A DNA stretch of 64,000 nucleotides, taken from the NCBI GenBank assembly GCA_964016885.1, contig OZ024742.1, forward strand, positions 94,178,001-94,242,000. Direction: 5' to 3'. The first letter of the stretch is position 1. Each line of letters begins with the position of its first letter. The notes below the pieces were generated by a model, which was not told the origin of the DNA, did no database searches, and saw nothing but the letters and a program-made list of their open reading frames with translations. Positions 18,249 to 58,862 of the stretch are shown here, piece by piece. Both the position numbers and the translations under genes were made by a program. Source of the stretch: Eledone cirrhosa. Taxonomy: Eukaryota.

Positions 18249-20985
18249 TTTTTTTGACCGGCCACCTTCCTGGTGGCAAGGTTGTAAAAGAAAAGAAATT
18301 GTCATCCCTTGAATTGCAAGAATGTTTTGCAAATTTTGAAGGTGCCAGCTATCGCAGCCATTTGTAGACTATGAATTAGGGAGCTGCGCTTTTTGTCCGC
18401 AAATCCAAGTTCAGTCATACTTTGGTCCAAGCGGGTTGGCATATAACCCGTAGCTCCAATAATGATGGGTATGAAGCTAAAGTGTATCTTGGATAATGGA
18501 TTTGTAAACTCCTCATCAATGGTCCGTAGATGTCCTCCTTCTCCTGTATTTTTCTGACAACGTTTACATCAAGTGGGCAGCTGATCTCCACAACAGAACA
18601 CATTTTCAATGTGTGGTCCCAAACAACAATATCAGGTCGGTTGTGCTTTAATTTGGTGGAAGTTTTTATTTTCAGGTTCCACCAGTATTCCTTAGTGCCA
18701 TCTGTCTCAATATATTCTTCCTCGTTTTCTGTTAATTTTGTTTTCCGAAGTGCGTTCCAGATGGATCTAGCTATCCCATCGTGTCTCATGGGGAGGTAGT
18801 AGCTAGATGACATTCTTTCACAACTGGTAACATTGTGGCTTTCATCCTCGATCTTTGTTTTACATAGCCTACATTTATTGTCAGCTGCTGGCCCTCCCTT
18901 TTCTGCAGCAGATATTTGGTAGGGAGTTCTTGTATTGCATAGAAATATTCCTCAAGGTGTGATGTCATAAACTTGTCGGAACTCCATGCCAGGCTCTTTG
19001 AGTGGTTTATCCCCTCTATGGTCTGTGTTTTACGTCTCAAGTATCCATGCACAACCTTTTCTGTAAATTGGTCAATTTTTTCATCTTGTTTGAACATTTA
19101 ATAGGATCTTCCGATTTCTCTGGGTGAGAGATTTATATCAGGCTTTATTCCATATCTCTCCTCCACATCAGTCGCTATTCTAATGATTATTTTTTTTTCA
19201 TGCTCATAAACCTGGGCACGATGGTTGCCAACCTTTTTCCTCTGTTGAAGATGTTACTTCAGTGTTACTATCCGGGTCTCATATGTTGTTAATATGGATT
19301 TTAGACCCCGGCCACCTTCCTTGCGTGAGAAGTATAGCCTATCCACATCACCATTGATCTTAAAGTTCCCAGTCACACTGAGAAGTTTGCGAGTTCTAAC
19401 ATCCATCTCACTTAGTTCTTGCAATGACCAGTTCAGCAGGCCAAATGTTGGCATTATAATTGGCACAGCATAAGTATTGTGGGCAATGTATTTGTTGTAC
19501 GCTGACAGTTCTGAAGGCCATATTTTCTTTACTCTTCTGAGGTATTCAGTTCTGGTTCTCTCCTTATTTATGGGTCCATCATATCTGACATTCTCATCCT
19601 GTCCAAGATATCTGTAGTTGTCACCTGACTGTAGAGGTTGTATTGTCAGGCCGTTCATCTCTAGATTTCTAGAAGAGGGCACAGCTTTTCCACGTTTTAC
19701 TGCCAAATATGCACACTTGGAGTCACCAAATTTCATTTTGATGTCTGTTGAAAATTGTGTAATGAGGTCCAATTGTTTCTTGATGTCATTGATGTTTGGC
19801 CCATACAACTTCAGGTCATCAACAAAGAAAAGATGGGAGATACTTCTGGACCCACTTCTTTGTCTTGTCTACCTTGTTTCCTGAGTAAGATAGTGGATTT
19901 AGTGAGAGAACGAAGAGTAGCACTGACAAGCTATCACCCTGAAAGATGCCCTTCTGGTAATGTATCTTATCAGTCTTAACTTGCTCCTTCTCACCTCTAA
20001 GGATCAAATTGGTGTACCAGTTCTTGCTCAGGCGTTCAACAGCAGCTACAAATGTTTGTGTGACTTTGGCTAACTGTAAAGCCTTAATAATCCACCCAGG
20101 AGGTACACTATCAAATGCTTTTTGATAGTCCAGCCACACCACAGTCATGTTTCTGCAATTCTTTGTTGTTTTTTCCTGAATCATTTTATTAGTTAGTAGG
20201 TGATCTATGCAACCCCACACCTCCCTCTTTCCACCAGCTTGCTCAGGTGTTATGATGTTGTTGGTAGCACAGTGATCCTGTAAGAACAGGTTAAGGCACC
20301 CAGTATATAATTTATATATGATGTTTTGGCAGGCTATTGGGCGGTATTTTTAGCAAGGGTGGTTTGGCTATTTTTGGGAATGAGGAGAGTAGTGGCAGTT
20401 GATAACCATCTGGGCAGTTCTTGTGTGCCTTTAATGGTTTCTGTAAACAGCCATATGAGATCTTGCCGATAGAAAGTGAAATTCTTCAACCAGTATCCTG
20501 TAATGAGGTCTGGGCCTGGTGATTTCCTATTCGACATTTTCTGTAGAGCTGTTTCCTGTATTGACCCATATATGTCATATTGTTTTGTCTGGACATGTTG
20601 GCAGTAGTCCTGTTCCAGTTCTTTTAGCCAATTAGTTTGTCTGTTGAAGCCGTCATCCGTTTCCCATGCAGATCTCCAGTAGCTCTCAACCTGTTCTTTT
20701 GAAGGGGTGTCATTTACAGGGATTGAGCTTTTGCCACCGAAGCTGCGTTAAACGGATTTAGGATCTCTGGCAAACAATCTATTTAGCACTTGTCGTTTAT
20801 GTGCTGTTAACTTATATTTTAGTCTTTCTGTTGTAGCTGTGAGTTGTTGTTTCAACTGGTGTAATTTGGAGTTCAAAGTTTTAAATTTTGTATCTCCAAA
20901 TCGTCTCTCTAACTTTTTTTTTAGGTCTTCCTGGTGTCGTGTGAAGTTGCTCTCTATGTAGCATTTCATAACGACTGCGATGTGT
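18249..20985 (-). mobile_element. Degenerate, 5'-truncated REL-endonuclease LINE (R4/Dong-related, second family) ending in poly(A)
   Basis: Frameshifted pieces 'KSPGPDLITGYWLK', 'WLDYQKAFDSVP', 'KGIFQGDSLS', 'YRYLG', 'EGGRGL', 'HNRPDIVVWD..VEISCP'. 3' hairpin GCCACC-AGGAA-GGTGGC then A7. Confidence 0.9.
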
Positions 20986-28965: not shown

Positions 28966-31900
28966 TTACAGATACGTACTCAGAGTAGGCCCATTCACTC
29001 GGGCCATTATTGCTTCTCTCACCCATCTTTCAACAAAGTGCTGGGAAGAGGGCACTTCCCTCTCTACCCTGATTTTCCTTTTCAAATGAAATTTGAAAAA
29101 GTTAATCAGGGCTTCACCGAAGAGGTAAGTGCTCGACTTCAGCCCTTTCAACCGTGTCCACCATACTATCTCTTTCGCCATGGCCACCAGACAGATAAAA
29201 ACTGCCTGCCCTTCCCGGCTAAAGGAAGAGGGCGGGGCAATCCTCACGATGTACCCAGCTGATAGCCGGATCCGTCCTACACGCGACAGCAGGTGTTCGA
29301 CATAAACCCACAAGTCAGCAATTTTCGGACACTGGACGAGTGCCTGCAGGACGGTTTCGTCGCCCTGCGCGCATCACGGACATGCCTGGCTGACGGCACC
29401 TCCATGCCTGTAGAGTTTATCCCGAACTGGCAAGGCTCCTCGGTAGCACTGCCGGGCCAGAGATTTCTGGAAGTTGTCCATAGGTCACGGCCCGAAAGTT
29501 CTTCCGAAGAGATTGGCTAGTTGATTTTCGTCGACGCCTAGAATTTCCCCAAGTACGTCGTCGCTCTTCCCGTCCACTAATCCTCTATAGAACGCCTAGG
29601 TGGAGTTTCAACCGATCACATTGCCCGATTGGTCGAGGGCTGTGAGCGCCTGAAGACATTCCAGTCTCCAGGCGCTCCCTCTTGGTCTTCGCTTGACCCA
29701 GGACTGCAGCTCCGTCAAGGAAACGAGCTGGGGAAATACGTGTCTAGCAAACGGCGACCACACCTGATCACCGTCGAGGAAGAGGTGGAGATGTCGTAGC
29801 CTGAGCGCGTGTCTGCGCATCATCAGCCACGCCAAGCCCAGCCCTCCACGTAGCGGGTGTTGACAGCAGATGGACCGCCTGACCATCGGAGCGCGTCCCT
29901 TCCACAAAAAGCGAAAGAGCAAACGCTCCAGCGCAGTCAGGCGGGGCTTAGGACAAGGTACGACGGTCAGGCGGTAGCAGATGACAGACGCGATGTACGC
30001 GTTAGCCACCTCCGCTCGACATTTCGGGGATAGCTTCCTCTCCGCCCATTTCTGGGTGAGAGAAGCCACCCTGATCGTCACCTCGTCCCAGTTTTTGTCC
30101 GTCTGGAGGTCCGGACCGAACCAGACCCCTAGCAATTTAACCGCACCGTCCGTCCAGCGTCCGACGACGCTGTTGGACGGCATGGACCTGCCTCTCCAGG
30201 TGCCGAGCTGCAGGCCCACTGACTTTTCCTGGTTGATCATTGTTCCTGTCACCGCTTCGTATTCCCTTAGTGTAGTGCCGATCGCCTCGACGTGTTTGGC
30301 GTTCAACACCACTACGGTGATATAGTCCGCATATACTGACACGGATCTTCCGCATCCTAGTTCGTGCGGGACGCCCCTCAACGTCTCCAGTTTGTGCAGT
30401 AATGGCTCGAGAGTCAATACGTACAAGAGGGACGAGAGGGGATATCCTTGGCGGACCGAGCGCATGATGTTGAACGGTTCCGACAGGTGACCGTTCACTC
30501 TCACCACAGAGCAGATGTCGCTGTGCATGGCAGCGATCCAGCCTCTGAGGACGGGCCGAAAGCCAGCCGCCCTCAGGACTGCCGCTAGGTAACGATGGTC
30601 GACCCTATCGAAAGCTTTCGACTGATCTAAATTGATCAAGGACCCACCGGTGCCAGGTTTCCTAGCTACCCTCTCTACGATGTATCACATGAGGTGGAGG
30701 TTGTCGTGGATGGATCTGTCGGGAATGGCGCATGTCTGCGCCTCTCCCACCAGACCACCAACGACAAGCGCCAACCTCTTTGCTAGCACCTTGGCCAAAA
30801 TCTTGAACTCTATGTTTAGCAGAGTTATGGGCCTGAAATTATCTATGTTATCCCCCTTGTTCGGATCCTTTCTCAGCAGTGCCACCGCTCCTCGGCTCAC
30901 AGATCTGGGAATTCTCCCGTTCTGTTGCGAGTTGCAGTAGACGTCCGCCAAGAGGCCTCCGAACAAGTCTGGCATCTGTACGTAAAGTTCATAGGGTAGA
31001 CCATCCAAACCAGGCGATTTACCCCTTGTGCAGCTAGTCATTGCCTCCCGTACTTCAGCGGCTGTTATCGGCTTTACGCAAAACTCCGCCTCAGTGGCCG
31101 AGAGCCGCGGCAGTCCGTCGAGGTAGACACAAAAGTCCATCCCTCGACCCGGCCCACTGCTGCCCCCGAACAGCTGAGCGAAGTGTCGCTGAAAAGCTTC
31201 ACATATTTGCCCGGGATCGACCAGCATGCGCCCGTCGTGGTCAACCAAAGACCGGATCGTGGCTTTGTTGCCACGGCGCACCTCCGACACTCGGGCCCAT
31301 TGAACGGCTTTCGTCCCCTCGTGTCTGAGAGCACGCAACTTAGCTCTGACAACGCAGCCTTCATGCTTTGCATTGAAGAATTGGTCAAGGGCCAATTTCG
31401 CCGCAAGTACGTCGGTCGCGATGCCTTTGCTAAGCGCCTCGTCTAATTTTCTAACTAATTCTCCCTCTATTCTATTTTTCTCTATTGCTAAAGCCTTACT
31501 AAACCTAATGGACTCTATTCTAATTGCTCTTTTCAGAGCAAACCACCACTTGTTGCTGACGATGGCCCCCGTCAACGCCCGCTTAACTAGCTCGCTAATC
31601 CGGTCTCTGTATGCCTTGCGCGCTGGTAAGGACGCGTTCAGCTTCCAGTAGCCGGGTCCTCGTCTATGAAGCCTATCTAAGTCAAGCACACAGATCACGA
31701 ATTTGTGGTCCGTGTAGCTGACTATCTTGAATTGTGGACAGCCTATGCTAGACCTATCTATTTCCCTACAAAATACTCTATCTAGATATGATCTGGATGA
31801 CCCTATGCGATTTGTCCAAGTCCACATTGGCACATTCGGGAAATCCAATCGGTACCTGTCAGACAGTTCGTAGCCGCCGAAGATCGGTGCGAAGGCCCGT

Positions 31901-32034
31901 GCTTGGGAGATTCTGGTCTCGCTGATGGCCACTATATCTATGTTTAGTGACCTGAGGTCGTTGATCAGGTGACCCTGCTTTCATGACGACCCCAAGCCAC
32001 GCGCATTTATGCTGGCTATTCTGAGTGAGGTCAT
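28966..32034 (-). pseudogene. Tx1 ORF2 (APE-RT-CCHC), disrupted
   Basis: 'MTSLRIASINARGL', 'ISET', 'SYLDRVF', 'YTDH', 'GYWKLN', 'KSPGLDGLP', 'NFRPITLLN', 'LDQSKAFDRVDH', 'VRQG.PLS', and YADY in place of YADD; early stop and frameshifts. Confidence 0.9.
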
Positions 32035-32141
32035 GTTTAAAATAGAGTGGAAAAGATGGGAAAGACCACTTACCGTACTTTTCGTAGAGGAAGGATGGTT
32101 TCTCCATCCCTTTTCACTTGATCGTCTGTTGAAGGGACCGT

Positions 32142-34235
32142 TCAATCGTCCCTTCGGCTGGTCGTCGGCTCTTCTATGAGTATGTCCGAATATACTCTCC
32201 GGTTAAGAGTCCCTCCTAGGTCTCTAAAATCACCAACTGCGTTGGGGAATTTCGTTTTAATGTTTGTGTATTGTTTCTGTGCTATTTTTAGCAGTCTTAT
32301 GTTAGTTGGCGTTTTGATTGGTGCTGGTATTATGTAGTCGTGCTGTGAAATGTCTGTGTGTTCAATTATGTAAGTCATTAGTTTCTTGTTGTGTGTATTT
32401 ATTGCCGTGCATTTGTTTGTCTGGGGGTGGGGTGTGGTTCTGCTATTTTCTTGTTGTTGCTGGGTGTGTGTGTTTTGTTGTTGTGTTTGCGATGTTGGTG
32501 CTTGTGGTGGTGGTGTTGAAGGTGTTGTTGTTGTTGGCGGTGGGGTTTTCGCCGGTGGTGATGGTGGTACTAGTGTGGGTGGTGATGGTGTTGGTGGTGT
32601 TGCTACTGTGAGTCTCTTTGCAGTAGCCTTTACCCTTTTTTCATTTCTTTCCTCCCCTTTCGAAGGCGACGATGCGCTGCTTCTGCGTTTGTGCCTTCTT
32701 ACGACGTTTTGCCATCCCTCTCCCACCTCACACTCCATGTCTGATTCTGTGAGGTCGGGGAGGGGTACCAGCTCCACTCTTTCACTTGTTGTTGTTGGTG
32801 ATGTTTGCAGCGGAGTCTCTGTTGCAGCTGCATTTGGTATTACTGTTGTTGTTGTTAATACTTCCACTGCTGCTGCTGTTCTTGATTTCGGTGGCGTGGG
32901 TATGGGTGCCACGGACCTATCGTTCCTGGTTGCCGCTTGTCCTGTTGCTGGTAGCCGTGGAGCCGGTTTCGGAAGGAAGGGGGTTTTCTCCTTTCTCAGG
33001 GTTTCTCGTTGCAGAAGGCCCTGAGGTGAGTCTTCGATCCACAACGAAAACATTTCGAGCGTTTGCCCTCAACACTTATGGGCAGTTGAGTGCCGTAATC
33101 GAAGTCTATCACATCCGGGATAGCTTTGATGCACTCCTGGTTGATTTTGATTAACATCTCAATGGAGGTGCCGACCCAATCTTCTCTTATTCTTTTCTGT
33201 ACTTGCAGTACAGTTGTTTTGTCCTCGATTCCTACGAGAACAGACGCGGCCAGCCAAGAAGGGGCCATCTCGGGGAGGGGAGGGGGGGGGAGGACGTGGG
33301 TCAGTTTGACCCTCTCAATTTTTTGCCCGCAGTAGGAGGGCACCAACACCATTTCCTCGCTCCTTAGGGTCACTAAGGATTGAGCCTTTGCCTCCTGGGG
33401 TGTGGCAAAAAGCACGTCTACGGTGGCATATTTCTTGCCTCGGGTGATGTGCGTTTTCCGCTGCCACACAGACCCTTAGGCTTTTTGTATTTGAGCCTCT
33501 GTGGCTCTTTCAACCCTACGGGATTTTGTGCTTACTGTACGGTTCGTGACCGTACAGTGCTGTTGGGTTTCGAAAAATTTTTCGGCTGCCTTGCAGATTG
33601 CTCGGTGTCCGGTTTTCGTCGCCATCTTCTTCGCTTCCTCTAATTCCTTATTTGTTATGAGGATGGTTTTCAGGTTCTTTGCGATACCTGCAAACGAGAT
33701 GGGTTTTTCTTTGCTGCTGTTGTTGTTGTTGTTGTTGTTGTCGTCAGAGCTGCTGTTACTTTTGTTGTTGCTGCAGGTACTACGACAACTGCCGCCACCG
33801 CTGTTGCTGTGGTTGTTGTTGTTGTTGTTGCTGCTGCTGCTGTTGTTGTTGCTGTTGCTGCTAATGCTGTTGTTGTTTATGCTGCTGCTGATGCTGTTGC
33901 GGCTGCTACTGTTGTTTTCCTTGTCACAGTTGCTGCTGCTGCTGTTATTACGGCTGCTACTGCTATTATTCATGACGTCAGACGAATGAAATGGGTTTTT
34001 GTATTTTCCGCACACCTCTTTCGTCGTTGTCGTCGTCCTCGTGGAGAAATCTTGCACGCTTTGCACGAGACTTTTCTATTCTGTCGTCACTTGCGAACGA
34101 GAATGCGGGGGGGGGGGGAGACACATTTAAAGAAGGGAGGGAGAGAGACAATCTTCTCTCTGCTGTAGTGATGATTGAGGAAGAAGAAGACGGAATGAGT
34201 GGGAGTAACCTATGAAAATTCTTTTTCGTAGCCAG
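32142..34235 (-). pseudogene. Tx1 ORF1 (gag-like, zinc knuckle), disrupted
   Basis: Pieces 33476..34066, 32996..33469 ('CFRCGSKTHLRAFC') and 32142..33053. The likely start is CTG at 34235 here but ATG at 28466 in the derivative. Confidence 0.75.
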
Positions 34236-34539: not shown

Positions 34540-37500
34540 AAGTCAGACATTCGAACACTACATTACAATGAAACTTATGCTTATTCATCTCTGGGGCCCT
34601 TTCTGCCTGTGTGTTTGTTTGTTTATGTGTGTTCGTATACAGCGTGGTGATAATGCCACACAAGGGCCAAGTGGAATGGCGGATCCACAGATGGCTATGT
34701 AAACATACATTCGCCAATCCTCGATAAGAGTGTTTAAATATCGAACATAAACAGTTCGAATAACGGTGAAATGGAGACTAGAACGTCATGTGACAGACTC
34801 TCACCCAACAGGTGCCCCCTGGCTCAGCAGCAGGAACCTGACTGTCAACCAAATACTGCTGATGTTGGAGGAAGGAGAAGAAGGAAAGGGGCCAGAACCA
34901 ACTGGACGAAAGAATTGAATAGAACTGTTATGCAATGCTACCTGAAAAGTAACCCCAAGGAGAGGGGCTACAGGAGACGGATGCATAACATCTGGAACGA
35001 GATTGGTTTATTTAAATTAGATGAACAAAAATTGGCCGGGCAGGCTCGGGTAATAAGAACTAATGGGTGGATAAGCGAGCTGGAACTGGAGGAACTGAGC
35101 AGAGAGAATGGCTTGGAGATGGCGGGTGTAGTATGCCAGACAAGCGAGCCGGTGGGAAATGAAGGTGAGGAGGTCCTGAGAACGGAGGAACCACCCGAAG
35201 CAGACAATGATCTGAGTACTGAGATAAATAATACCTGGAACAGAGATACGGCCACTGAGGAGATGAATGCTGACGGGCTAGGACAAGATTCGGTTGACAT
35301 CCTAAATTTAGTGGTAGATGAATTGAACAATGATAGTGGGAGACCTATGAACCTAAGATTTGTAGACAGGAAAAAGTTAAAAGAAACAACAGCTAAGGTA
35401 AACAAAGTCATCCCATACCTTGAGGCGAGGAGCCTTCACCAGTGCAACAATATCCTCAGAGCAACAGCAAATACGGTGAGGAAACTACTTGGTATAAAAG
35501 CGAGAGGAAACAACAGACAAGAAAGAGCAGAGCCGTGGTGGAAGAAGCGACTGAGTGGGCAAATCGGGGAAATGAGAAATGACATAGGAAAGCTTGAGTC
35601 ACTACTGAATGGGACACTAAAAAACATAGGCACTAAAAATAGACTGGAAATAAAATACAAAACTAGGAGTAAAAAGCTAAATATTATCATAGAGGAATTG
35701 AAGCAACGCATTGTAGCAAAGAGTGCAAAAATCAGGCGATACGAGAACAGAGTCAGTCAGTATAAACAGAACCGCATGTTCGACAACAACCAGAAGATGC
35801 TGTTTGGACAGCTTGAGGGCAAGGAAAGAGGCAACGACTTGATCCCTGGGGCGGAGCAAACTAAAACATTCTGGAGAGGAATATGGGAGCAGGATGTTAG
35901 ACACAATGCCCAGGCAGGGTGGATTGAGACAGTACAGAGGGAGATTGGTGAGCAGGCACAGCAACAGACTGATTTGAGTATCACAGTTGAAACTCTTAAG
36001 GGGCAAGCCAAAAAACTAACCAACTGGAAATCACCAGGCCCAGATGGTGTGCAGGGGTATTGGATTAAACATCTAACATCCCTCCACCCGAAGCTGACGG
36101 CCATGTTCAATGACTGCTTGGTGTCGGGTGAGGTGCCAGAGTGGTTGACAAAAGGTACCACAGTTCTGATAATGAAAGACCGAATCAAGGGTAATGATGC
36201 TACCAACTATAGACCTATCACATGTCTGCCCGTAATGTGGAAACTGTTGACGAGCATTGTGTCTGAGGAAATCTACCATCACCTCCACACAAACAACTTG
36301 TTACCGGACGAACAGAAAGGATGCCGAAAGAAGTCACGTGGTACAAAGGACCAGTTGCTTATTGATAAGATGGTAATGGGGAATTGCAGGAGGAGACACA
36401 CTGATCTTGCCATGGGATGGATAGACTACAGAAAGGCATTTGACATGGTGCCTCATTCCTGGATCACCAAAAGCCTGGAGATCTTCAGGGTGGCAGATAA
36501 CATCAGACAGTTGCTAGGCAGGAGTATGGGGTCCTGGGAGACAGAGTTGACATCAACTGGAGTATCCTTGGGAAGCGTGAAGATCAAGAGAGGTATCTTC
36601 CAGGGAGATAGCCTGTCCCCTCTGCTGTTTGTCCTTGCCCAGATGCCCTTGACCATTATGCTGCGAAAAGTGAGAGCAGGATACAAGTTGGGAAGGGGAG
36701 AGCTTACCATCAATCACCTCCTCTTCATGGACGATCTTAAGCTCTTCGGGAAAAGTGAGAAGGAGTTGGATGTGCTTGTTGACACTGTCCGTATTTTCAG
36801 CAGTGATATATGTATGCAGTTTGGTATTGGTAAATGTGGAGTCATTGTGATGAAGAGGGGTAGGTTGAGCAGAAGTAACGGGATCCAGATACCAACAGGT
36901 GAGATGATAAAGGAAATTGACTCTGAGGAAGGATACAAGTATTTGGGCGTTCTGGAGGCTGATGGCATAAAGAACAAAAAAAAGAAGGAATTGTTAAGAA
37001 CTGAATACATTCGGAGAGTAAGGAGCGTATTGAAGTCACATCTGAACAGCAGAAATGCCATAAGCGCAGTAAATTCCCGAGCTGTGTCTATTATTAGGTA
37101 CAGTGCGGGAATTCTGAGATGGAATGTTGCTGAACAGAAAGAAATGGATAGGAAGACTAGGAAGCTATTGACTATCTACAACATGTTCCACAAGAGGAGT
37201 GATGTCGATAGACTCTACCTAAGGAGATCTGAGGGTGGAAGAGGTCTTATCAGCATAGAGGACTGTGTTCAGATGGAGAAAAACAACCTATACAAATACG
37301 TGACCTATAGTAAGGAGTCAATGCTCAGAGCTGTACTGAAGGAGGGGACAGTAGGCCAGGGGATGTCCAGGGAGGAAATAACATCAAGGAGGAAGAGCAG
37401 CCTTAAGGGAAAACCCCTTCATAGTACCTTCTTTGAGAAAACTGAATTTAGAGATCCACAGACATGGAACTGGTTGAGAAGAGGAGACCTCAAAAAGGCT

Positions 37501-38237
37501 ACAGAAGGAATGCTAATGGCTGCGCAGGAGCAGGCCCTCAAAACGAAGTGGTTGAAGCACCATATCTACAAGGAGGAGGCCAGCCCACTGTGCAGGATCT
37601 GTGGAGAGAGAGAGGAGACTGTGGCTCACATTGTGTCCGAGTGTAAACACCTAGCCCAAACCCACTATAAGGGCTGGAGACACGATGTGATGGGCAGGGT
37701 GATCCACTGGCACCTGTGCAAAGTAAACAATCTACCACATTCTGAGAAATGGTATGAGCATAGGCCAGAGGCGGTGATGGAGAACAATCAGGTGAAGGTG
37801 CTGTGGAATTTTAGGATACAGACGGACAAAAAACTGGAACACAATAGACCTGACCTGGTGGTTGTGGACAAAGAAAAAAGATCGTGCCTGATTGTGGATG
37901 TGGCCTGCCCGTTCGACACGAGAGTGCAAGAGAAGGAGAGGGAGAAAATTAACCGATACCAGGACCTAAAGTGGGAGGTGAAAAGGATTTGGAACTGCCA
38001 TGAAGTCAAAGTGATCCCGATTGTCATAGGTGCACTGGGGACTATCTCCAAAAGTTTCCAGGGATGGTTAAAGAAAATCGGCCCCTTCACGCTTTTTGGA
38101 ACGCTTCAAAAGGCATGCTTGCTTGGAACAGCAAGAACCCTCCGATACGTCCTGAATATCTGAGGCTGCAGGTAGTGGCTTGATATTCAATCCAACGGAC
38201 TTTCCAGTTAACCAACATCAATGACTGAGATTCAAGG
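34540..38237 (+). mobile_element. Apparently full-length R4/Dong-clade LINE in (AAT)n
   Basis: Single long ORF with short UTRs, (AAT)n on both sides. Dong elements are known to target TAA repeats. Confidence 0.92.
34771..38163 (+). CDS. Intact 1130-aa retrotransposon protein: RT, CCHC knuckle, restriction-like endonuclease
   Basis: 'WKSPGPDG', 'NYRPITCLP', 'WIDYRKAFD', 'GIFQGDSLSPLLF', 'LFMDDLK', 'YKYLG', 'CRICGEREETVAHIVSEC', 'RPDLVVVD..VDVACP..EK..RY'. Confidence 0.95.
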   Translation: METRTSCDRLSPNRCPLAQQQEPDCQPNTADVGGRRRRKGARTNWTKELNRTVMQCYLKSNPKERGYRRRMHNIWNEIGLFKLDEQKLAGQARVIRTNGWISELELEELSRENGLEMAGVVCQTSEPVGNEGEEVLRTEEPPEADNDLSTEINNTWNRDTATEEMNADGLGQDSVDILNLVVDELNNDSGRPMNLRFVDRKKLKETTAKVNKVIPYLEARSLHQCNNILRATANTVRKLLGIKARGNNRQERAEPWWKKRLSGQIGEMRNDIGKLESLLNGTLKNIGTKNRLEIKYKTRSKKLNIIIEELKQRIVAKSAKIRRYENRVSQYKQNRMFDNNQKMLFGQLEGKERGNDLIPGAEQTKTFWRGIWEQDVRHNAQAGWIETVQREIGEQAQQQTDLSITVETLKGQAKKLTNWKSPGPDGVQGYWIKHLTSLHPKLTAMFNDCLVSGEVPEWLTKGTTVLIMKDRIKGNDATNYRPITCLPVMWKLLTSIVSEEIYHHLHTNNLLPDEQKGCRKKSRGTKDQLLIDKMVMGNCRRRHTDLAMGWIDYRKAFDMVPHSWITKSLEIFRVADNIRQLLGRSMGSWETELTSTGVSLGSVKIKRGIFQGDSLSPLLFVLAQMPLTIMLRKVRAGYKLGRGELTINHLLFMDDLKLFGKSEKELDVLVDTVRIFSSDICMQFGIGKCGVIVMKRGRLSRSNGIQIPTGEMIKEIDSEEGYKYLGVLEADGIKNKKKKELLRTEYIRRVRSVLKSHLNSRNAISAVNSRAVSIIRYSAGILRWNVAEQKEMDRKTRKLLTIYNMFHKRSDVDRLYLRRSEGGRGLISIEDCVQMEKNNLYKYVTYSKESMLRAVLKEGTVGQGMSREEITSRRKSSLKGKPLHSTFFEKTEFRDPQTWNWLRRGDLKKATEGMLMAAQEQALKTKWLKHHIYKEEASPLCRICGEREETVAHIVSECKHLAQTHYKGWRHDVMGRVIHWHLCKVNNLPHSEKWYEHRPEAVMENNQVKVLWNFRIQTDKKLEHNRPDLVVVDKEKRSCLIVDVACPFDTRVQEKEREKINRYQDLKWEVKRIWNCHEVKVIPIVIGALGTISKSFQGWLKKIGPFTLFGTLQKACLLGTARTLRYVLNI

Positions 38238-53113: not shown

Positions 53114-53477
53114 TATATGTGTGGATGTATATATTCATAGTTTGTGGTACAGGGACTGGGAAGTCCACAAATTGAATATATATATTTATATATATAAATG
53201 GAATAGAATGAAACGAAATTTCATTTCTCACTCTTCGTACAGCACTTACTTAAATGTAAGTATGTATGTATGTACACGTACATACATATATGTATACAGA
53301 CGTACAGTGGTATGTATATATATACATACATGCACACATATATATATGCACGTATCGGTTTACCGAACATTTATTATAATGCTCGGTTTGTTTGTTTATA
53401 AACTATCAAACAGCCCGAATTACGCCATACAGTGTTTAGGCAACCACGTCACCTTTTTGTTCAACACTGACACAAGA

Positions 53478-53520
53478 ACGATGTACTAGTTTCAAGCTTA
53501 TTACCTATCGTCAGCATCGT
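53478..53520 (-). ncRNA. Type I hammerhead ribozyme, copy A
   Basis: ACGAUG-CUGACGA-UAGGUAAUAAGCUU-GAAAC-UA-GUA-CAUCGU; perfect 6-bp stem I, one mismatch in stem II. Confidence 0.75.
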
Positions 53521-53647
53521 ATACCTTCCAGCCAGATGGTTGAACATCTGAAAGTATATACTTTCCTTATGCATATTAACGGTTGAGCAGCCTAATTTGC
53601 ATATCGAGTGATTATAATAAACAAACCGAGCATTATAATAAATGTTC

Positions 53648-53834
53648 AGGGCGGTGGATTGGCAGTATAGGTAGAGGGTCGGACGCCATGCTTTCCAGCA
53701 TAGTTCTGTCCCTTTACGACCTGAGTTCAAATCCCGCCGAGGTTGACTTTGCCTTTCATCCTTACGGGGTCGATAAAATAAAGTACCAGTAATGCACTGG
53801 GTAACTAGCTGGCCTTGTGCCTAAAGTAGAAACA
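53648..53834 (+). mobile_element. SINE-A inserted into the retrozyme-like unit, 16-bp TSD
   Basis: ATTATAATAAATGTTC at 53632-53647 and 53835-53850; empty sites at ~54283-54310 and, reversed, ~53355-53380. Confidence 0.92.
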
Positions 53835-54142
53835 ATTATAATAAATGTTCGGTAAACCGATACGTGCATATATATATATGTGTGCATGTATGTATATATA
53901 TACATACTACTGTACATCTGTATACATATATGTATGTACGTATACATACATACATACTTACACTTAAGTAAGTGCCGTACCAAGCGTGAGAAATGAAATT
54001 TCGTTTCATTCTATTCCATTTATCGTTTTCGGTGTGACCGGCCGACTGAACTCACTCGATATGCAAATTAGGCTGCTCAGCCGTTAATATGCATAACAAA
54101 AGTGTATACTTTCAGACGTTCAACCATCTTGCAGGTAGGTAT

Positions 54143-54185
54143 ACGATGCTGACGATAGCTAATAGGCTTCAAACTAGTACATCGT
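54143..54185 (+). ncRNA. Type I hammerhead ribozyme, copy B (core GAAA changed to CAAA, probably inactive)
   Basis: ACGAUG-CUGACGA-U-AGC(UAAUAG)GCU-U-CAAAC-UA-GUA-CAUCGU. Confidence 0.7.
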
Positions 54186-54401
54186 TCCTGTGTCAGTGTT
54201 GAACAAAAAGGTGACGTTGTTGCCTAAACATTGTACGGCGTAATTAGGGCTGTTTGTTAGTTTACAAACAAACAAATCGAGCTTTATAATAAATGTTCGG
54301 TAAACCGATAGTGCATATATATATGTGTGCATGTATGTATATATATACATACTACTGCACGTCTGTATACATATATGTATGTACGTATACATACATACAT
54401 A

Positions 54402-54469
<68 letters not shown>

Positions 54470-54471
<2 letters not shown>

Positions 54472-54722
54472 AGATATTAACAAATGGAAACTATATTTAT
54501 AAAACCATATTTATTTCATTATACATATTTCAAGGGCCACCAAAGCAATCTATGGTGCGCTTTCATGAGATAAAATATAATAGAGGTTAGTTTTATAAAT
54601 AAATAATGACATACCCTGAAAAAATGCAACCATTCTGGTTGGAATCTCCTGGTGGCCCTTGAAATATGTATAATGAAATAAATATGGTTTTATAAATATA
54701 GTTTCCATTTGTTAATATATTG
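54470..54722. mobile_element. 253-bp fold-back/MITE-like element with 73-bp inverted arms, copy 1
   Basis: 54470-54542 and 54650-54722 are reverse complements with one mismatch; TA flanks. Confidence 0.85.
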
Positions 54723-54810
54723 TATATTTACTCCAATAATTTGTTGAGTGCTTTATATCAATTATGAAAATATTTTGGTTGTTGTATCCCAACAAATTAA
54801 ATATAACCTC

Positions 54811-54883
<73 letters not shown>

Positions 54884-54885
<2 letters not shown>

Positions 54886-55498
54886 TGGCTGTGCCAACCC
54901 GTTTTCGAGTACGGCCACTACTTTATATCCATGTAGGAGAACCCGTACCGATGGGCTGAATGAGTGTGACTTTTTAGTCCAGCCAGCGACTTGAAAACTC
55001 TGGTACAAACACTACATTTGTGACAATTATTGACACATAGTGCTGGGCCCATGGTACCATGTGACGACAAATGCAGAGAGATCTCCAGATATGAAGCAAT
55101 GCTTGTGCCGTGAAGCTTTTATAGTGAGCAAAGGCACTGCACAAAGCCAGTCCCACTCACTTAACCAAGATGATATTTACCAAAAAGAAGAACAAGTCAA
55201 CATCATTGGATTCCATCAGGGTTGCAGGTGTTATATCAGAGTTTTCCTTCTCCTAGAATTCTGCCTTGATAAAGGCTAAGGGGTCATCTCTCCCGGTGAT
55301 TTTGGATGGCCATTGACGCTTAAGAGCTCCTTTGCCCTTTGACAGGTTTTGTTTTTAGTTCTGCAGGATGTCCAAAGTCACCCTCCTCACCAAGAAACCT
55401 TGGTGGGGTTGCCAGTTTAGTCACCAACGACCCGACCATGAGACAATTTGTACTGTTACCAGTACATGTTACCAGTAGCACCAACCGGTGACCTGACA
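54884..55498 (-). mobile_element. GC-richer insert between (TA)n runs, probable RTE-type 5'-UTR fragment
   Basis: Minus strand contains CTAGGAGAAGGAAAACTCTGA, which I recall from RTE 5' regions; no ORF support. Confidence 0.35.
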
Positions 55499-55572
55499 TA
55501 ATATGTATGTATGTATGTATATATATATATATATATATATATACATACATACATATATACATACATACATAC

Positions 55573-55660
<88 letters not shown>

Positions 55661-56303
55661 ATAATAATAAAATTGAAGACTAAAATCTAAAGAGGGCTCG
55701 ATAAGGAAAATATATATCAAATATATAAAAACCGTAGAGCAAATATTTATTAAAATAACAGATTAAAGTTTAAGCAAAGAATCGCTGCTTTCACCCTTAA
55801 CGGGATCTTCTGAAACTAACAAAGTCAATCTGTAAACGCAGAATTGGATATTTCAAAAAACGTTGCAACCGGAGGAAGACAGGAAGACGATACTTTGGTT
55901 CGCGGAAAGGTTCTCTGGCAAAGAACGGGAAAAAAACGAATATACGTCATTAATAGGAGTGGTGAAAAATAATTAGGCGCAAAGACAGAACCACGTTTAT
56001 GGTATAAAAGAGGTCGTAGACTAATGTTCTCTTAGGTGGTGCATAGAGACGTTCTCTGGCAATGAACGAAAAAACGAAGATAATAAGTCATATGTTGAAC
56101 GTGGAGAACAATAGCACGCAAAGACAAAACCACGTAAATGGTATAGCAGAAGTCGTAGACTAAAATTCTAACTAGGAGACCAAATGAATCTCCGCTACAG
56201 AGTTAAGAACAAAGTAAATAAATACAATACAGAAGTAATAGAAACAAATAAATACATACACGCAAACAGATACGTACATACACAAGCATACGCAAAACCT
56301 TAC

Positions 56304-56556
56304 CAATATATTAACAAATGGAAACTATATTTATAAAACCATATTTATTTCATTATACATATTTCAAGGGCCAGCAAGGCAATCTATGGTGCGCTTTCAT
56401 CAGATAAAATATAATAGAGGTTAGTTTTATAAATACATACTGACATACCCTGAAAAAATGCAACCATTCTGGTTGGAATCTCCTGGTGGCCCTTGAAATA
56501 TGTATAATGAAATAAATATGGTTTTATAAATATAGTTTCCATTTGTTAATATCTTG
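56304..56556. mobile_element. 253-bp fold-back/MITE-like element, copy 2, same orientation as copy 1
   Basis: Near-identical to 54470-54722. Confidence 0.85.
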
Positions 56557-56590
<34 letters not shown>

Positions 56591-56591
56591 T

Positions 56592-56895
56592 GGAGGCACA
56601 TGGCTTAGTGGTTAGAGCATTGGCCTTGCAATCGAAAGGTTGTGAGTTCAATTCTCAGATCGGGTGATGTGTTGTTTCCTTGAGCAAGACACTTTATTTC
56701 AGATTGATCCAGTTTACTCAGCTGTAGAAATGAGATGATAAGTGGTCGTGGAGGTGCCACGGCAAAATGCACCCAGCACTCACTGTAAATGAGGTGTGTG
56801 TTAGGAAGGGTATCCAGCTCTAGAAATCAAGCCAGAATCAGTTCCCGTCCCACCCTTGCAAGCATGGAAAAGCTGATGTAAAATGATGATGATGA
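56592..56895 (+). mobile_element. SINE-B full-length copy in (TA)n
   Basis: A box TGGCTTAGTGG, B box GAGTTCAATTC, CORE-like CCTTGAGCAAGACACTT, (TGA)n tail. Confidence 0.85.
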
Positions 56896-57369
56896 TATAT
56901 ATATATGTACATATATATATGTATATGTATATATGTATATATATATATATATATATTGGTACGGTTACGCGATGCGCATGAAAGACGACAGCTGTATAAA
57001 AAAGTGCAGGTATATAAATAAGTGCAGCTGTATAAAAAAGTGCGATAAAAATAGACGGTAGCCACGGAGAAAAACCTGGGACAACTTGCTAAATTCCGAC
57101 CTCACACACTTACACCTCTCCAAGACAATGTCACTGGACATACACAGTAATACACAGTAATACAGAAGTAATACAGAATGCCTAAGTACAATGCCTGGCG
57201 ATACACAGTAATACAGAAGTAATACAGAATGCCTAAGTACAAAACGAAACTTACAATCAGTAGGCACTTCTAACAAAAATACACCTCTGCCCCACTACCC
57301 CCACCCTATCCACACCACCTCTTCCAATGTAGAGTTATGTAAAAAAGTTATGTAAAAAATGAGGGCGAG

Positions 57370-57598
57370 TAGGTGTCACGACAAAAAAGCACACAGTCCA
57401 CGCTGTAATGTGGCCGTGTAGGTAACACGGTAAAAACCTCCCAGTCCACACTGTAAATGTGGTTGGTGTTAGGAAGGTCATCCAGCCATAGAAAACCCGC
57501 CAGACAGTCCTGAGCAAGACAACCAATCTTGCCTCAAGTGGGACAATTCCCGTCTAGACCCATACTAGCGTGGGAGATGGACGTTAAACGATGATGAC
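57370..57598 (+). mobile_element. SINE-B 3' portion
   Basis: Internal units, then GTTAGGAAGGTCATCCAGCC...CTAGCGTGGGAGATGGACGTTAAACGATGATGA. Confidence 0.7.
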
Positions 57599-57878
57599 AT
57601 ACATACATACATATATACATACATATACATATACACATATATATAGATATACGGAAAAAATGAAACAAAATTTCATTTCCCACTCTTAGTATGGCTGTTA
57701 CTTAAATATAAGTATGTATACGTACATACATATATGTATACATACGTACAGTAGTATGTATATATATATACATACATGCACACATATATATATGTACGTA
57801 TGGATTCACCAAACATTTATTATAATGCCACAGTGTCTAGCAACCACCGTTGCTCGTTTGTTCAACACTGACAATGGA

Positions 57879-57921
57879 ACGCTCTACTAGTTTCAAGCTT
57901 GTTAGCTATCGTCAGCAACGT
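57879..57921 (-). ncRNA. Type I hammerhead ribozyme, copy C
   Basis: ACGUUG-CUGACGA-U-AGC(UAACAA)GCU-U-GAAAC-UA-GUA-GAGCGU; G.G mismatch next to the cleavage site. Confidence 0.7.
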
Positions 57922-58313
57922 ATACCTTCCTGCCAGATTGTTGAACGTCCGAAAGTATATACTTTCGTTATGCATATTAACGGCTGAGTAGCCCAATTTG
58001 CGTATCGAGTGGGTTAATCGGCCGGGTGCACCGAAAACGATAAACGGAAAAAATGAAACGAAATTTCCTTTCCCACTCTTAGTACGGCTGTTACTTAAAT
58101 ATAAGTATGTATACGTACATACATATATGTATACAGATGTACAGTATGTATACAGTCTGTATACATATATGTATGTACGTATACATACTTATATTTAATT
58201 TCGGTGCACCTGGACGATTAACCCACTCGATATACAAATTGGGTTACTCAGCCGTTAATATGCATAAGGAAAGTATATGCTTTCGGACGTTCAACAATCT
58301 GGCAGGAAGGTAT

Positions 58314-58356
58314 ACGTTGCTGACGATTGCTAACAAGCTTGAAACTAGTACAGCGT
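58314..58356 (+). ncRNA. Type I hammerhead ribozyme, copy D
   Basis: ACGUUG-CUGACGA-UUGC(UAACAA)GCUU-GAAAC-UA-GUA-CAGCGU; stem I extends through GGA/UCC, CUGGCA/UGUCAG and GUUCAACA/UGUUGAAC. Confidence 0.75.
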
Positions 58357-58862
58357 TCCTTTGTCAGTGTTGAACAAACCAGCAACGGTGGTTGCTAGAC
58401 ACTGCGTATGTTTGTTTACAAACACACCGAGCATTATAATAAATGTATGGTTAATCCAAATGTACATATATATATGTGTGCATGTATGTATATATATATA
58501 TATACATACTACTGTACGTCTGTATACATATATGTATGTACGTATACATATATATATATATGTATATACATATATATATACATATATTGAAAATTGCAAA
58601 CTTGACTGTCACCACATATTATGAACCTGAAGAGTGCGAAAGCATGAAAGTACTAGTTCAATTAACACTTAGAATTTAATATTCTATCATACTATTTCAT
58701 TATAATACCATTATAAATTTTAAAGGATTGTAAATAAAACGGTAAATCAGACAAAGTTGGAATTCCTCTTATTAATATAATCTTCTATACACAATCATAC
58801 ACACCCGTGTATATTTATCTATCTATATATATATATATATATACATATATATACATATATAT

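Follow-up and report, generated by a model that had tools for sequence, protein, structure and literature searches.

Retrozymes without long terminal repeats (non-LTR retrozymes) and the hammerhead ribozymes of Penelope-like elements (PLEs) have been defined in PMC7229834 and PMC4209133 and reviewed in PMC7761336. In coral, mussel and axolotl, metazoan retrozymes are built of tandem units that do not code for protein, span a few hundred bp, have a low GC content and are present in thousands of copies, with a type I hammerhead whose helix III is short and palindromic and with a predicted circle that is highly paired (PMC7229834). These features recur in a repeat family found in a 64,000-nt stretch of the Eledone cirrhosa genome (GCA_964016885.1, contig OZ024742.1, positions 94,178,001 to 94,242,000; hereafter the window). 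The cephalopod family differs in that its unit lies at the long end of the described range (424-500 bp), in that U.U occupies positions 10.1/11.1 of the hammerhead, and in that its insertions are often inverted, carry PLE tails and lie in (TA)n; in the main text of PMC7229834 the words 'inverted' and 'rolling' do not occur. A tandem hammerhead repeat is likewise present in newt satellite 2 (PMC2220036).

The insertions resemble those of endonuclease-bearing PLEs, which also form partial tandems with head-to-head inverted arms and a tail at one end, enter AT-rich or microsatellite targets, and possess a hammerhead upstream of their 3' ends (PMC11167929, PMC3846280, 10.1101/2021.04.23.441226). 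In contrast to those elements, the unit described here has no open reading frame (ORF), the repeat is the whole element, and the tail measures ~55-65 nt, as opposed to the 30-40 nt described. Retrozymes have been regarded as non-autonomous PLE derivatives in 10.64898/2026.07.22.740005, which concerns the same element class and the same proposed dependence on PLEs. There, a PLE origin was argued from co-occurrence and from the phylogeny of PLE pseudo-LTRs (pLTRs) in 35 species, with no mollusc among them; the study leans to local amplification for the tandems, leaves open the reverse transcription and insertion of non-LTR retrozymes, and in its accessible text mentions neither 'tail' nor 'target site'. 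In the case of the family in the window, the link to PLEs is an integration signature rather than pLTR homology.

At the DNA level, the family is genuine and likely a non-LTR retrozyme, a label that the original prediction had proposed and that fits because the family is non-coding and tandem-forming, is present in high copy, and has a type I hammerhead under selection; the copies in the window itself, however, are mutated and inverted. The element class is already known. What is added is a PLE integration signature on a retrozyme present in tens of thousands of copies, together with a young sister family that forms long, perfect, two-armed arrays. A literature search brought up no account of retrozymes in cephalopods, nor of retrozymes with PLE tails, although Repbase/Dfam and supplements lay outside the search and may already list the families; neither 'hammerhead' nor 'ribozyme' appears in the main text of an octopus repeat annotation (PMC13282606). 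With moderate confidence, we propose that the family is copied by a PLE reverse transcriptase (RT)/endonuclease, which probably makes repeated passes around an RNA circle of unit length.

Hammerhead architecture, copy number and conservation

All four 43-nt hammerhead motifs claimed for the window were recovered at precisely the positions given (Table 1), each with CUGACGA and the palindrome ACUAGU; the GAAAC said to be in every unit reads CAAAC in copy 2 through loss of G12. The family hammerhead comprises a 6-bp stem I, CUGAYGA, a U.U followed by a stem II that has 4 bp and a loop of 4 nt, GAAA, and a stem III of 2 bp with a UA loop that forms the palindrome, with cleavage predicted after GUA; folding predicts an extra segment of stem I past a small internal loop. 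The motif is not 'minimal' but has the type I layout described as typical of metazoans in PMC4209133 (helix I of 6 bp, helix II of 4 bp, and helix III of 1-2 bp with a palindromic loop), with helix III kept. The min-HHR of PLEs, which in the same source has no helix III, a long helix II and G10.1-C11.1, does not describe the window family. In the suggested check against Rfam, no hammerhead was matched at the gathering score, nor did one appear in the weak matches listed (150 of 202). The dimer hammerhead folds at -19.4 versus 2 x -6.7 kcal/mol, a computed advantage of ~6 kcal/mol over a pair of monomers. For the circular monomer the computed energy is -144.5 kcal/mol, versus -97.1 +/- 5.8 kcal/mol for 40 shuffles (z -8.2), with 71% of its bases paired.

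Genome-wide counts are of exact pattern matches in the 3.0-Gb assembly (G000). A 31-nt core has 24,001 such matches, as compared to none for the reversed control, indicating that the motif is not due to chance. Since the same pattern matched exactly 73 of 93 copies selected by their flank, the genome is estimated to hold ~30,600 hammerheads; the core was intact in 82 of the 93. Units of ~424-500 bp fall into at least three subfamilies and form arrays of up to 12 units, such that the tandem arrays that were to be sought genome-wide do exist, and head-to-tail tandems with at least two intact hammerheads occur in the family, although not at the two loci of the window. Consistent with the claim that the unit is non-coding, no ORF of at least 150 aa was found over the units, one microsatellite frame excepted. 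The unit lacks the RT plus GIY-YIG ORF of an autonomous PLE, and no ORF-linked copy was found among the loci compared. At G000:C1:51.78-51.79 Mb (L435-L440), family sequence recurs at a spacing of ~1,713 bp, apparently captured in a larger tandem repeat.

A relaxed pattern recovered a sister family that is ~65% identical, with units of 466-470 bp, G10.1-C11.1 in its hammerhead and 9,503 matches. Its arrays reach 31 units, and it is very young, as seen at L363-L364, L361-L362 and L321 (G000:C1).

The original prediction would have been refuted had conservation of the core failed to exceed that of the adjoining sequence, which was not the outcome. Among copies picked solely by the upstream flank motif, one per insertion, catalytic positions depart from the subfamily majority in 5 of 565 cases, as opposed to 348 of 9,129 for non-CpG flank positions (p 4e-5), and polymorphic columns number 1 of 25 in the core and stems II and III versus 45 of 145 in the flank (p 0.003). 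Between the three subfamilies, none of 11 core columns differs, and the four hammerhead differences are confined to N7, a base of loop 2, and both partners of one stem I pair. When the window and sister families are compared, 6 of 15 pairs are changed on both sides, with compensatory changes in stems I and II, and 94% of cells are paired across both families versus 32-51% when the partners are slid. The comparison draws on 12 distinct but related and hand-picked rows, and the number of double-changed pairs alone was reached by 88 of 500 shuffles. Single-site core variants number ~200-240 genome-wide, near 1%, implying that copies decay neutrally and that the constraint acts on master lineages. 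These comparisons support a high-copy, non-coding, tandem-forming family with a selected type I hammerhead.

Integration signature and candidate helper

The hallmarks of PLE mobilisation, namely 5' truncation, partial tandems, a head-to-head inverted arm and an AT-rich or microsatellite target, are all present. Two sets were scored: 119 hammerhead-bearing clusters by motif tokens, and a larger, overlapping set of 141 segments by an alignment-based method. The clusters comprise 48 divergent inversions, 69 single-orientation and 2 complex arrangements, with none simply convergent; the 18 'convergent' pairs returned by alignment are mostly short matches to a TA-rich near-palindrome, and the token count is preferred. 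The 3' ends lie at two fixed points ~55-61 nt apart, and inverted insertions with both ends classed combine one long and one short end in 34 of 36 cases by tokens and in 44 of 46 by alignment (p 3e-11). The sister family obeys the same rule, with counts of 10/11 and 7/7 that have one insertion in common. TATATA follows 134 of 140 ends in the token set, and 183 of 222 ends versus 390 of 2,820 random positions. The 5' ends are ragged and scattered, with only 2 of 222 within 5 nt of the predicted cut site. Arms run through that site in 172 of 222 cases, a figure raised by the choice of loci, and exact pattern counts just downstream (26,047), at the core (24,001) and upstream (20,114) reveal no step at the cut.

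A tail combined with an inverted pLTR is the signature described for PLEs (10.1101/2021.04.23.441226, PMC3846280), where the tail corresponds to the stretch of RNA that separates two internal start sites of the RT, and where cutting and extension affect both strands of the DNA (PMC11167929). The family very probably integrates in the manner of PLEs.

PLEs are abundant in the genome, with 10,597 GIY-YIG candidates, and GIY-YIG and protein searches yielded several PLE families. One RT plus GIY-YIG family (L144) shares the U.U and the palindromic stem III layout in its hammerhead (5,384 exact matches), inserts in (TA)n, and follows the long/short rule in all three scorable inverted pairs; a 3' stub of this family is present in the window next to the second insertion (Table 1). 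The L144 family is a candidate for the type of helper, although it has no sequence in common with the unit. In many inverted pairs of this PLE, a mere ~106-122 nt separates the hammerheads, which suggests a preferred 5' stop or mini-palindromic derivatives. In the search for a helper, two hits of a relaxed pattern (L278 and L280) were chance matches, and an apparent 2.7-kb spacing at L091 came from units nested antisense inside another PLE; at L091:4300-7380 these antisense units stand just before the endonuclease domain, in both arms of the PLE's own inversion. In other PLE families (for instance L141, L142, L158 and L062), stem II, GAAA and a palindrome ACCGGU are recognisable downstream of the ORF with a degenerate CUGANGA box, and may be non-catalytic remnants of hammerheads.

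The template and competing explanations

The proposed pathway would begin with transcription of a tandem array, in which adjacent hammerheads would pair via the ACUAGU palindrome, with cleavage predicted after GUA, and ligation would turn the resulting monomer into a circle. Having nicked (TA)n, a PLE protein would start cDNA from either of two internal sites, which lie ~215 and 272 nt downstream of the cut. Both strands of the target would have been primed in ~40% of sampled insertions, one per site, creating an inverted insertion with the tail on one arm only. Each cDNA would read across the ligated junction, completing between 0.3 and >10 rounds before it ends at random, and the arrays would later grow and mix through local duplication. 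Somewhat more tentatively, and at a little below even confidence, these insertions can be seen as a footprint of animal retrozyme movement, in which a PLE protein primes both nicked strands at two sites on one RNA circle and rolls up to ~20 identical units into one mirror-image insertion, and in which some variants found in all units may be adenosine-to-inosine (A-to-I) edits. The predictions thus offered are a pair of start sites, each used for one strand, and copying across the ribozyme junction. Whether a PLE enzyme performs target-primed reverse transcription in rolling-circle mode can therefore be tested directly in a published in vitro assay, for which the families supply ready material.

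Evidence for the template comes from variants common to several units, counted after removal of a duplicate locus (L030) and one near-duplicate insertion from the distance and allele counts. Rare alleles are common to opposite arms of an insertion in 18 of 72 pairs, which represent 10 of 35 insertions, as compared to 224 of 20,694 control pairs (1.1%), and in 22 of 25 cases the opposite arms fall within a single subfamily. In the sister family, one young insertion at G000:C1:30.83-30.84 Mb consists of 6.85 + 12.93 letter-identical 468-nt units (3,207 + 6,053 nt) joined by a gapless arm junction. Among 16 young insertions chosen for their similarity to this 20-unit insertion, 11 have variants in every unit, representing 7 haplotypes, and two others have a variant in several but not all units. 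All-unit variants were also seen in the window family, at L092, L024, L027, L094 and L261, with several other loci having none. Of 130 unit junctions at the predicted cut site, all but one keep the register (129 of 130), and there are no gaps in columns 158-161 (212-214 rows). Variants repeatedly fixed in all units of both arms require a monomer bottleneck, and, taken with the precise junctions, this makes copying around a circle the best explanation; that the template was circular is, in our estimate, somewhat more probable than otherwise.

A number of observations nevertheless weigh against copying from a self-cleaved circle by a PLE. Because U.U replaces G10.1-C11.1, a pair termed highly conserved in PMC4209133, the window family may cleave poorly, and 8 of 9 retrozyme dimers tested in 10.64898/2026.07.22.740005 failed to cleave. 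Hammerhead cleavage is also dispensable for insertion in vitro (PMC11167929). For 91-nt segments containing the hammerhead, folding is no more favourable than for shuffled sequences, and the low energy of the circle derives partly or largely from a TA/CA near-palindrome. No pLTR homology to the unit was found in the 78 PLE loci compared (of >10,000 candidates), nested copies of the unit aside. Older arrays (L100, the 31-unit sister array, and the C4 and C28 arrays) display ABAB and mosaic patterns, for which local duplication is needed. At L024, an allele is common to the two arms in register and is absent from a third unit; more generally, when counted per insertion, in-register pairs share rare alleles in 11 of 56 cases (1.37 per kb) versus 8 of 88 out of register (0.56 per kb), as would be expected from a multimer template or from gene conversion. 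The cleanest evidence for rolling-circle copying is that of the sister family rather than the window family, and the identity of units could stem in part from homogenisation during assembly.

Some of these points favour a linear template. If the family were PLE-mobilised but copied from the uncut read-through transcript of an array, with the hammerhead kept for protein binding or slow processing, no circle would be needed, and the in-register excess exemplified by L024, a U.U that may weaken cleavage, and the finding that RNA left unprocessed serves as the main substrate in vitro (PMC11167929) would all be accommodated. Such a template is nonetheless unlikely in our view: a 13-unit arm would demand 12 consecutive uncut sites, the 7 haplotypes fixed in all units of both arms among 16 near-identical insertions need a monomer bottleneck, and the catalytic core is conserved across master lineages. 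The bottleneck and the tandem products could equally arise from a linear monomer that is cut at both hammerheads and copied as the enzyme jumps again and again between templates at the cut site, no covalent circle being involved, but the precision of the cut-site junctions (129/130, and the gapless columns) and the want of any pile-up of 5' ends at the cut site (2/222) render this quite improbable, even slightly more so than the pLTR explanation that follows.

Two further explanations were considered. Units might be the 3' stubs (pLTRs) that belong to an as yet undiscovered autonomous PLE, with tandems arising solely by unequal crossing-over after insertion, a route proposed in 10.64898/2026.07.22.740005; the local duplication patterns and the great abundance of PLEs are in keeping with it. 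In 141 segments, though, what lies upstream of a unit is another unit, an inverted arm or host DNA, with no ORF-linked copy seen, multi-unit arms flank inversions on both sides without mismatch, and subfamilies evolve as whole units, and we regard this origin as improbable. Least probable is a miniature inverted-repeat transposable element (MITE) or fold-back DNA transposon with an incidental hammerhead match. The inverted-repeat look of many insertions speaks for such an element, but the arms are unequal in length, 5'-truncated and end at two different fixed points, an asymmetry that largely refutes it; 69 of the 119 clusters are single-orientation by motif tokens, and the hammerhead covaries.

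Two leads concern the units themselves. An octamer, ATGCAAAT, lies ~80 nt upstream of the hammerhead core in both families, kept despite their 65% overall identity, and the promoter of newt satellite 2 reportedly uses an octamer. Because ATGCAAAT is mutated (three A>G changes) in one propagated sister haplotype common to four insertions, and also in L092, its role as a required promoter was set aside and it stays a lead only. In addition, A>G is enriched among all-unit relative to unit-private variants in both families (5/11 versus 30/306, and 9/15 versus 4/44), with weak strand asymmetry, and RNA editing of templates is a possible cause. The A>G:T>C asymmetry depends on threshold (5:0, 6:4, 9:2 and 15:9) and is absent from unfiltered variants (25:22), and since it is unstable in this way, editing by ADAR is likewise a lead only.

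The window loci and neighbouring features

Contrary to the partial tandem arrangement originally described at two loci, the window contains two divergent inverted insertions, each a minus arm followed by a plus arm (Table 1). The inverted arms are 92-95% complementary, and the two insertions are separate events from different subfamilies. In both, the minus arm leads to the long 3' end and the plus arm to the short 3' end, each in (TA)n. No head-to-tail hammerhead pair on the same strand was found within the window, and double cleavage to a unit-length RNA is thus impossible at these loci, which look like products rather than sources of circles. Each window hammerhead also has a private change relative to the column majorities of ~200 family copies, and the window copies appear to be passive, mutated, older products of the proposed process.

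Table 1. Coordinates of the retrozyme insertions, their hammerheads and associated repeats in the window
Feature	Position	Strand	Remarks
Insertion 1, left arm	53194..53611	-	~0.95 unit, 5'-truncated; long 3' end (with tail) in (TA)n
Hammerhead copy 1	53478..53520	-	stem II C>G
Insertion 1, right arm	53612..54404	+	~1.3 units, split by SINE-like repeat; short 3' end in (TA)n
Later SINE-like insertion	53648..53834	+	16-bp target duplication, 53632-53647 / 53835-53850
Hammerhead copy 2	54143..54185	+	G12>C (GAAA lost) and stem II change; predicted inactive
Insertion 2, left arm	57646..58154	-	~1.2 units, internal deletion; long 3' end; inner boundary approximate
Hammerhead copy 3	57879..57921	-	position 1.1 C>G; first stem I pair broken
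Insertion 2, right arm	58155..58550	+	short 3' end in (TA)n; inner boundary approximate
Hammerhead copy 4	58314..58356	+	stem II A>U
Autonomous RT + GIY-YIG PLE family (L144), 3' stub	58587..58822	+	hammerhead at 58627, same U.U/palindrome layout; adjoins insertion 2

The repeat that splits the right arm of insertion 1 is presumably a short interspersed nuclear element (SINE), and further copies resembling it are found elsewhere in the window. Two small elements, at 54470-54730 and 56304-56564, are 97% identical to each other and lie beside (TA)n; the hammerhead motif that they carry is of another kind, with its core at 56403 on the minus strand and a stem I similar to that of a PLE family found in L113-L140. 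Farther away, positions 34738-38163 form one uninterrupted frame of 1,141 aa, which we take to be the RT of a non-LTR retrotransposon, and other fragments resembling long interspersed nuclear elements (LINEs) are located at 18415-20349 and 29608-33475.

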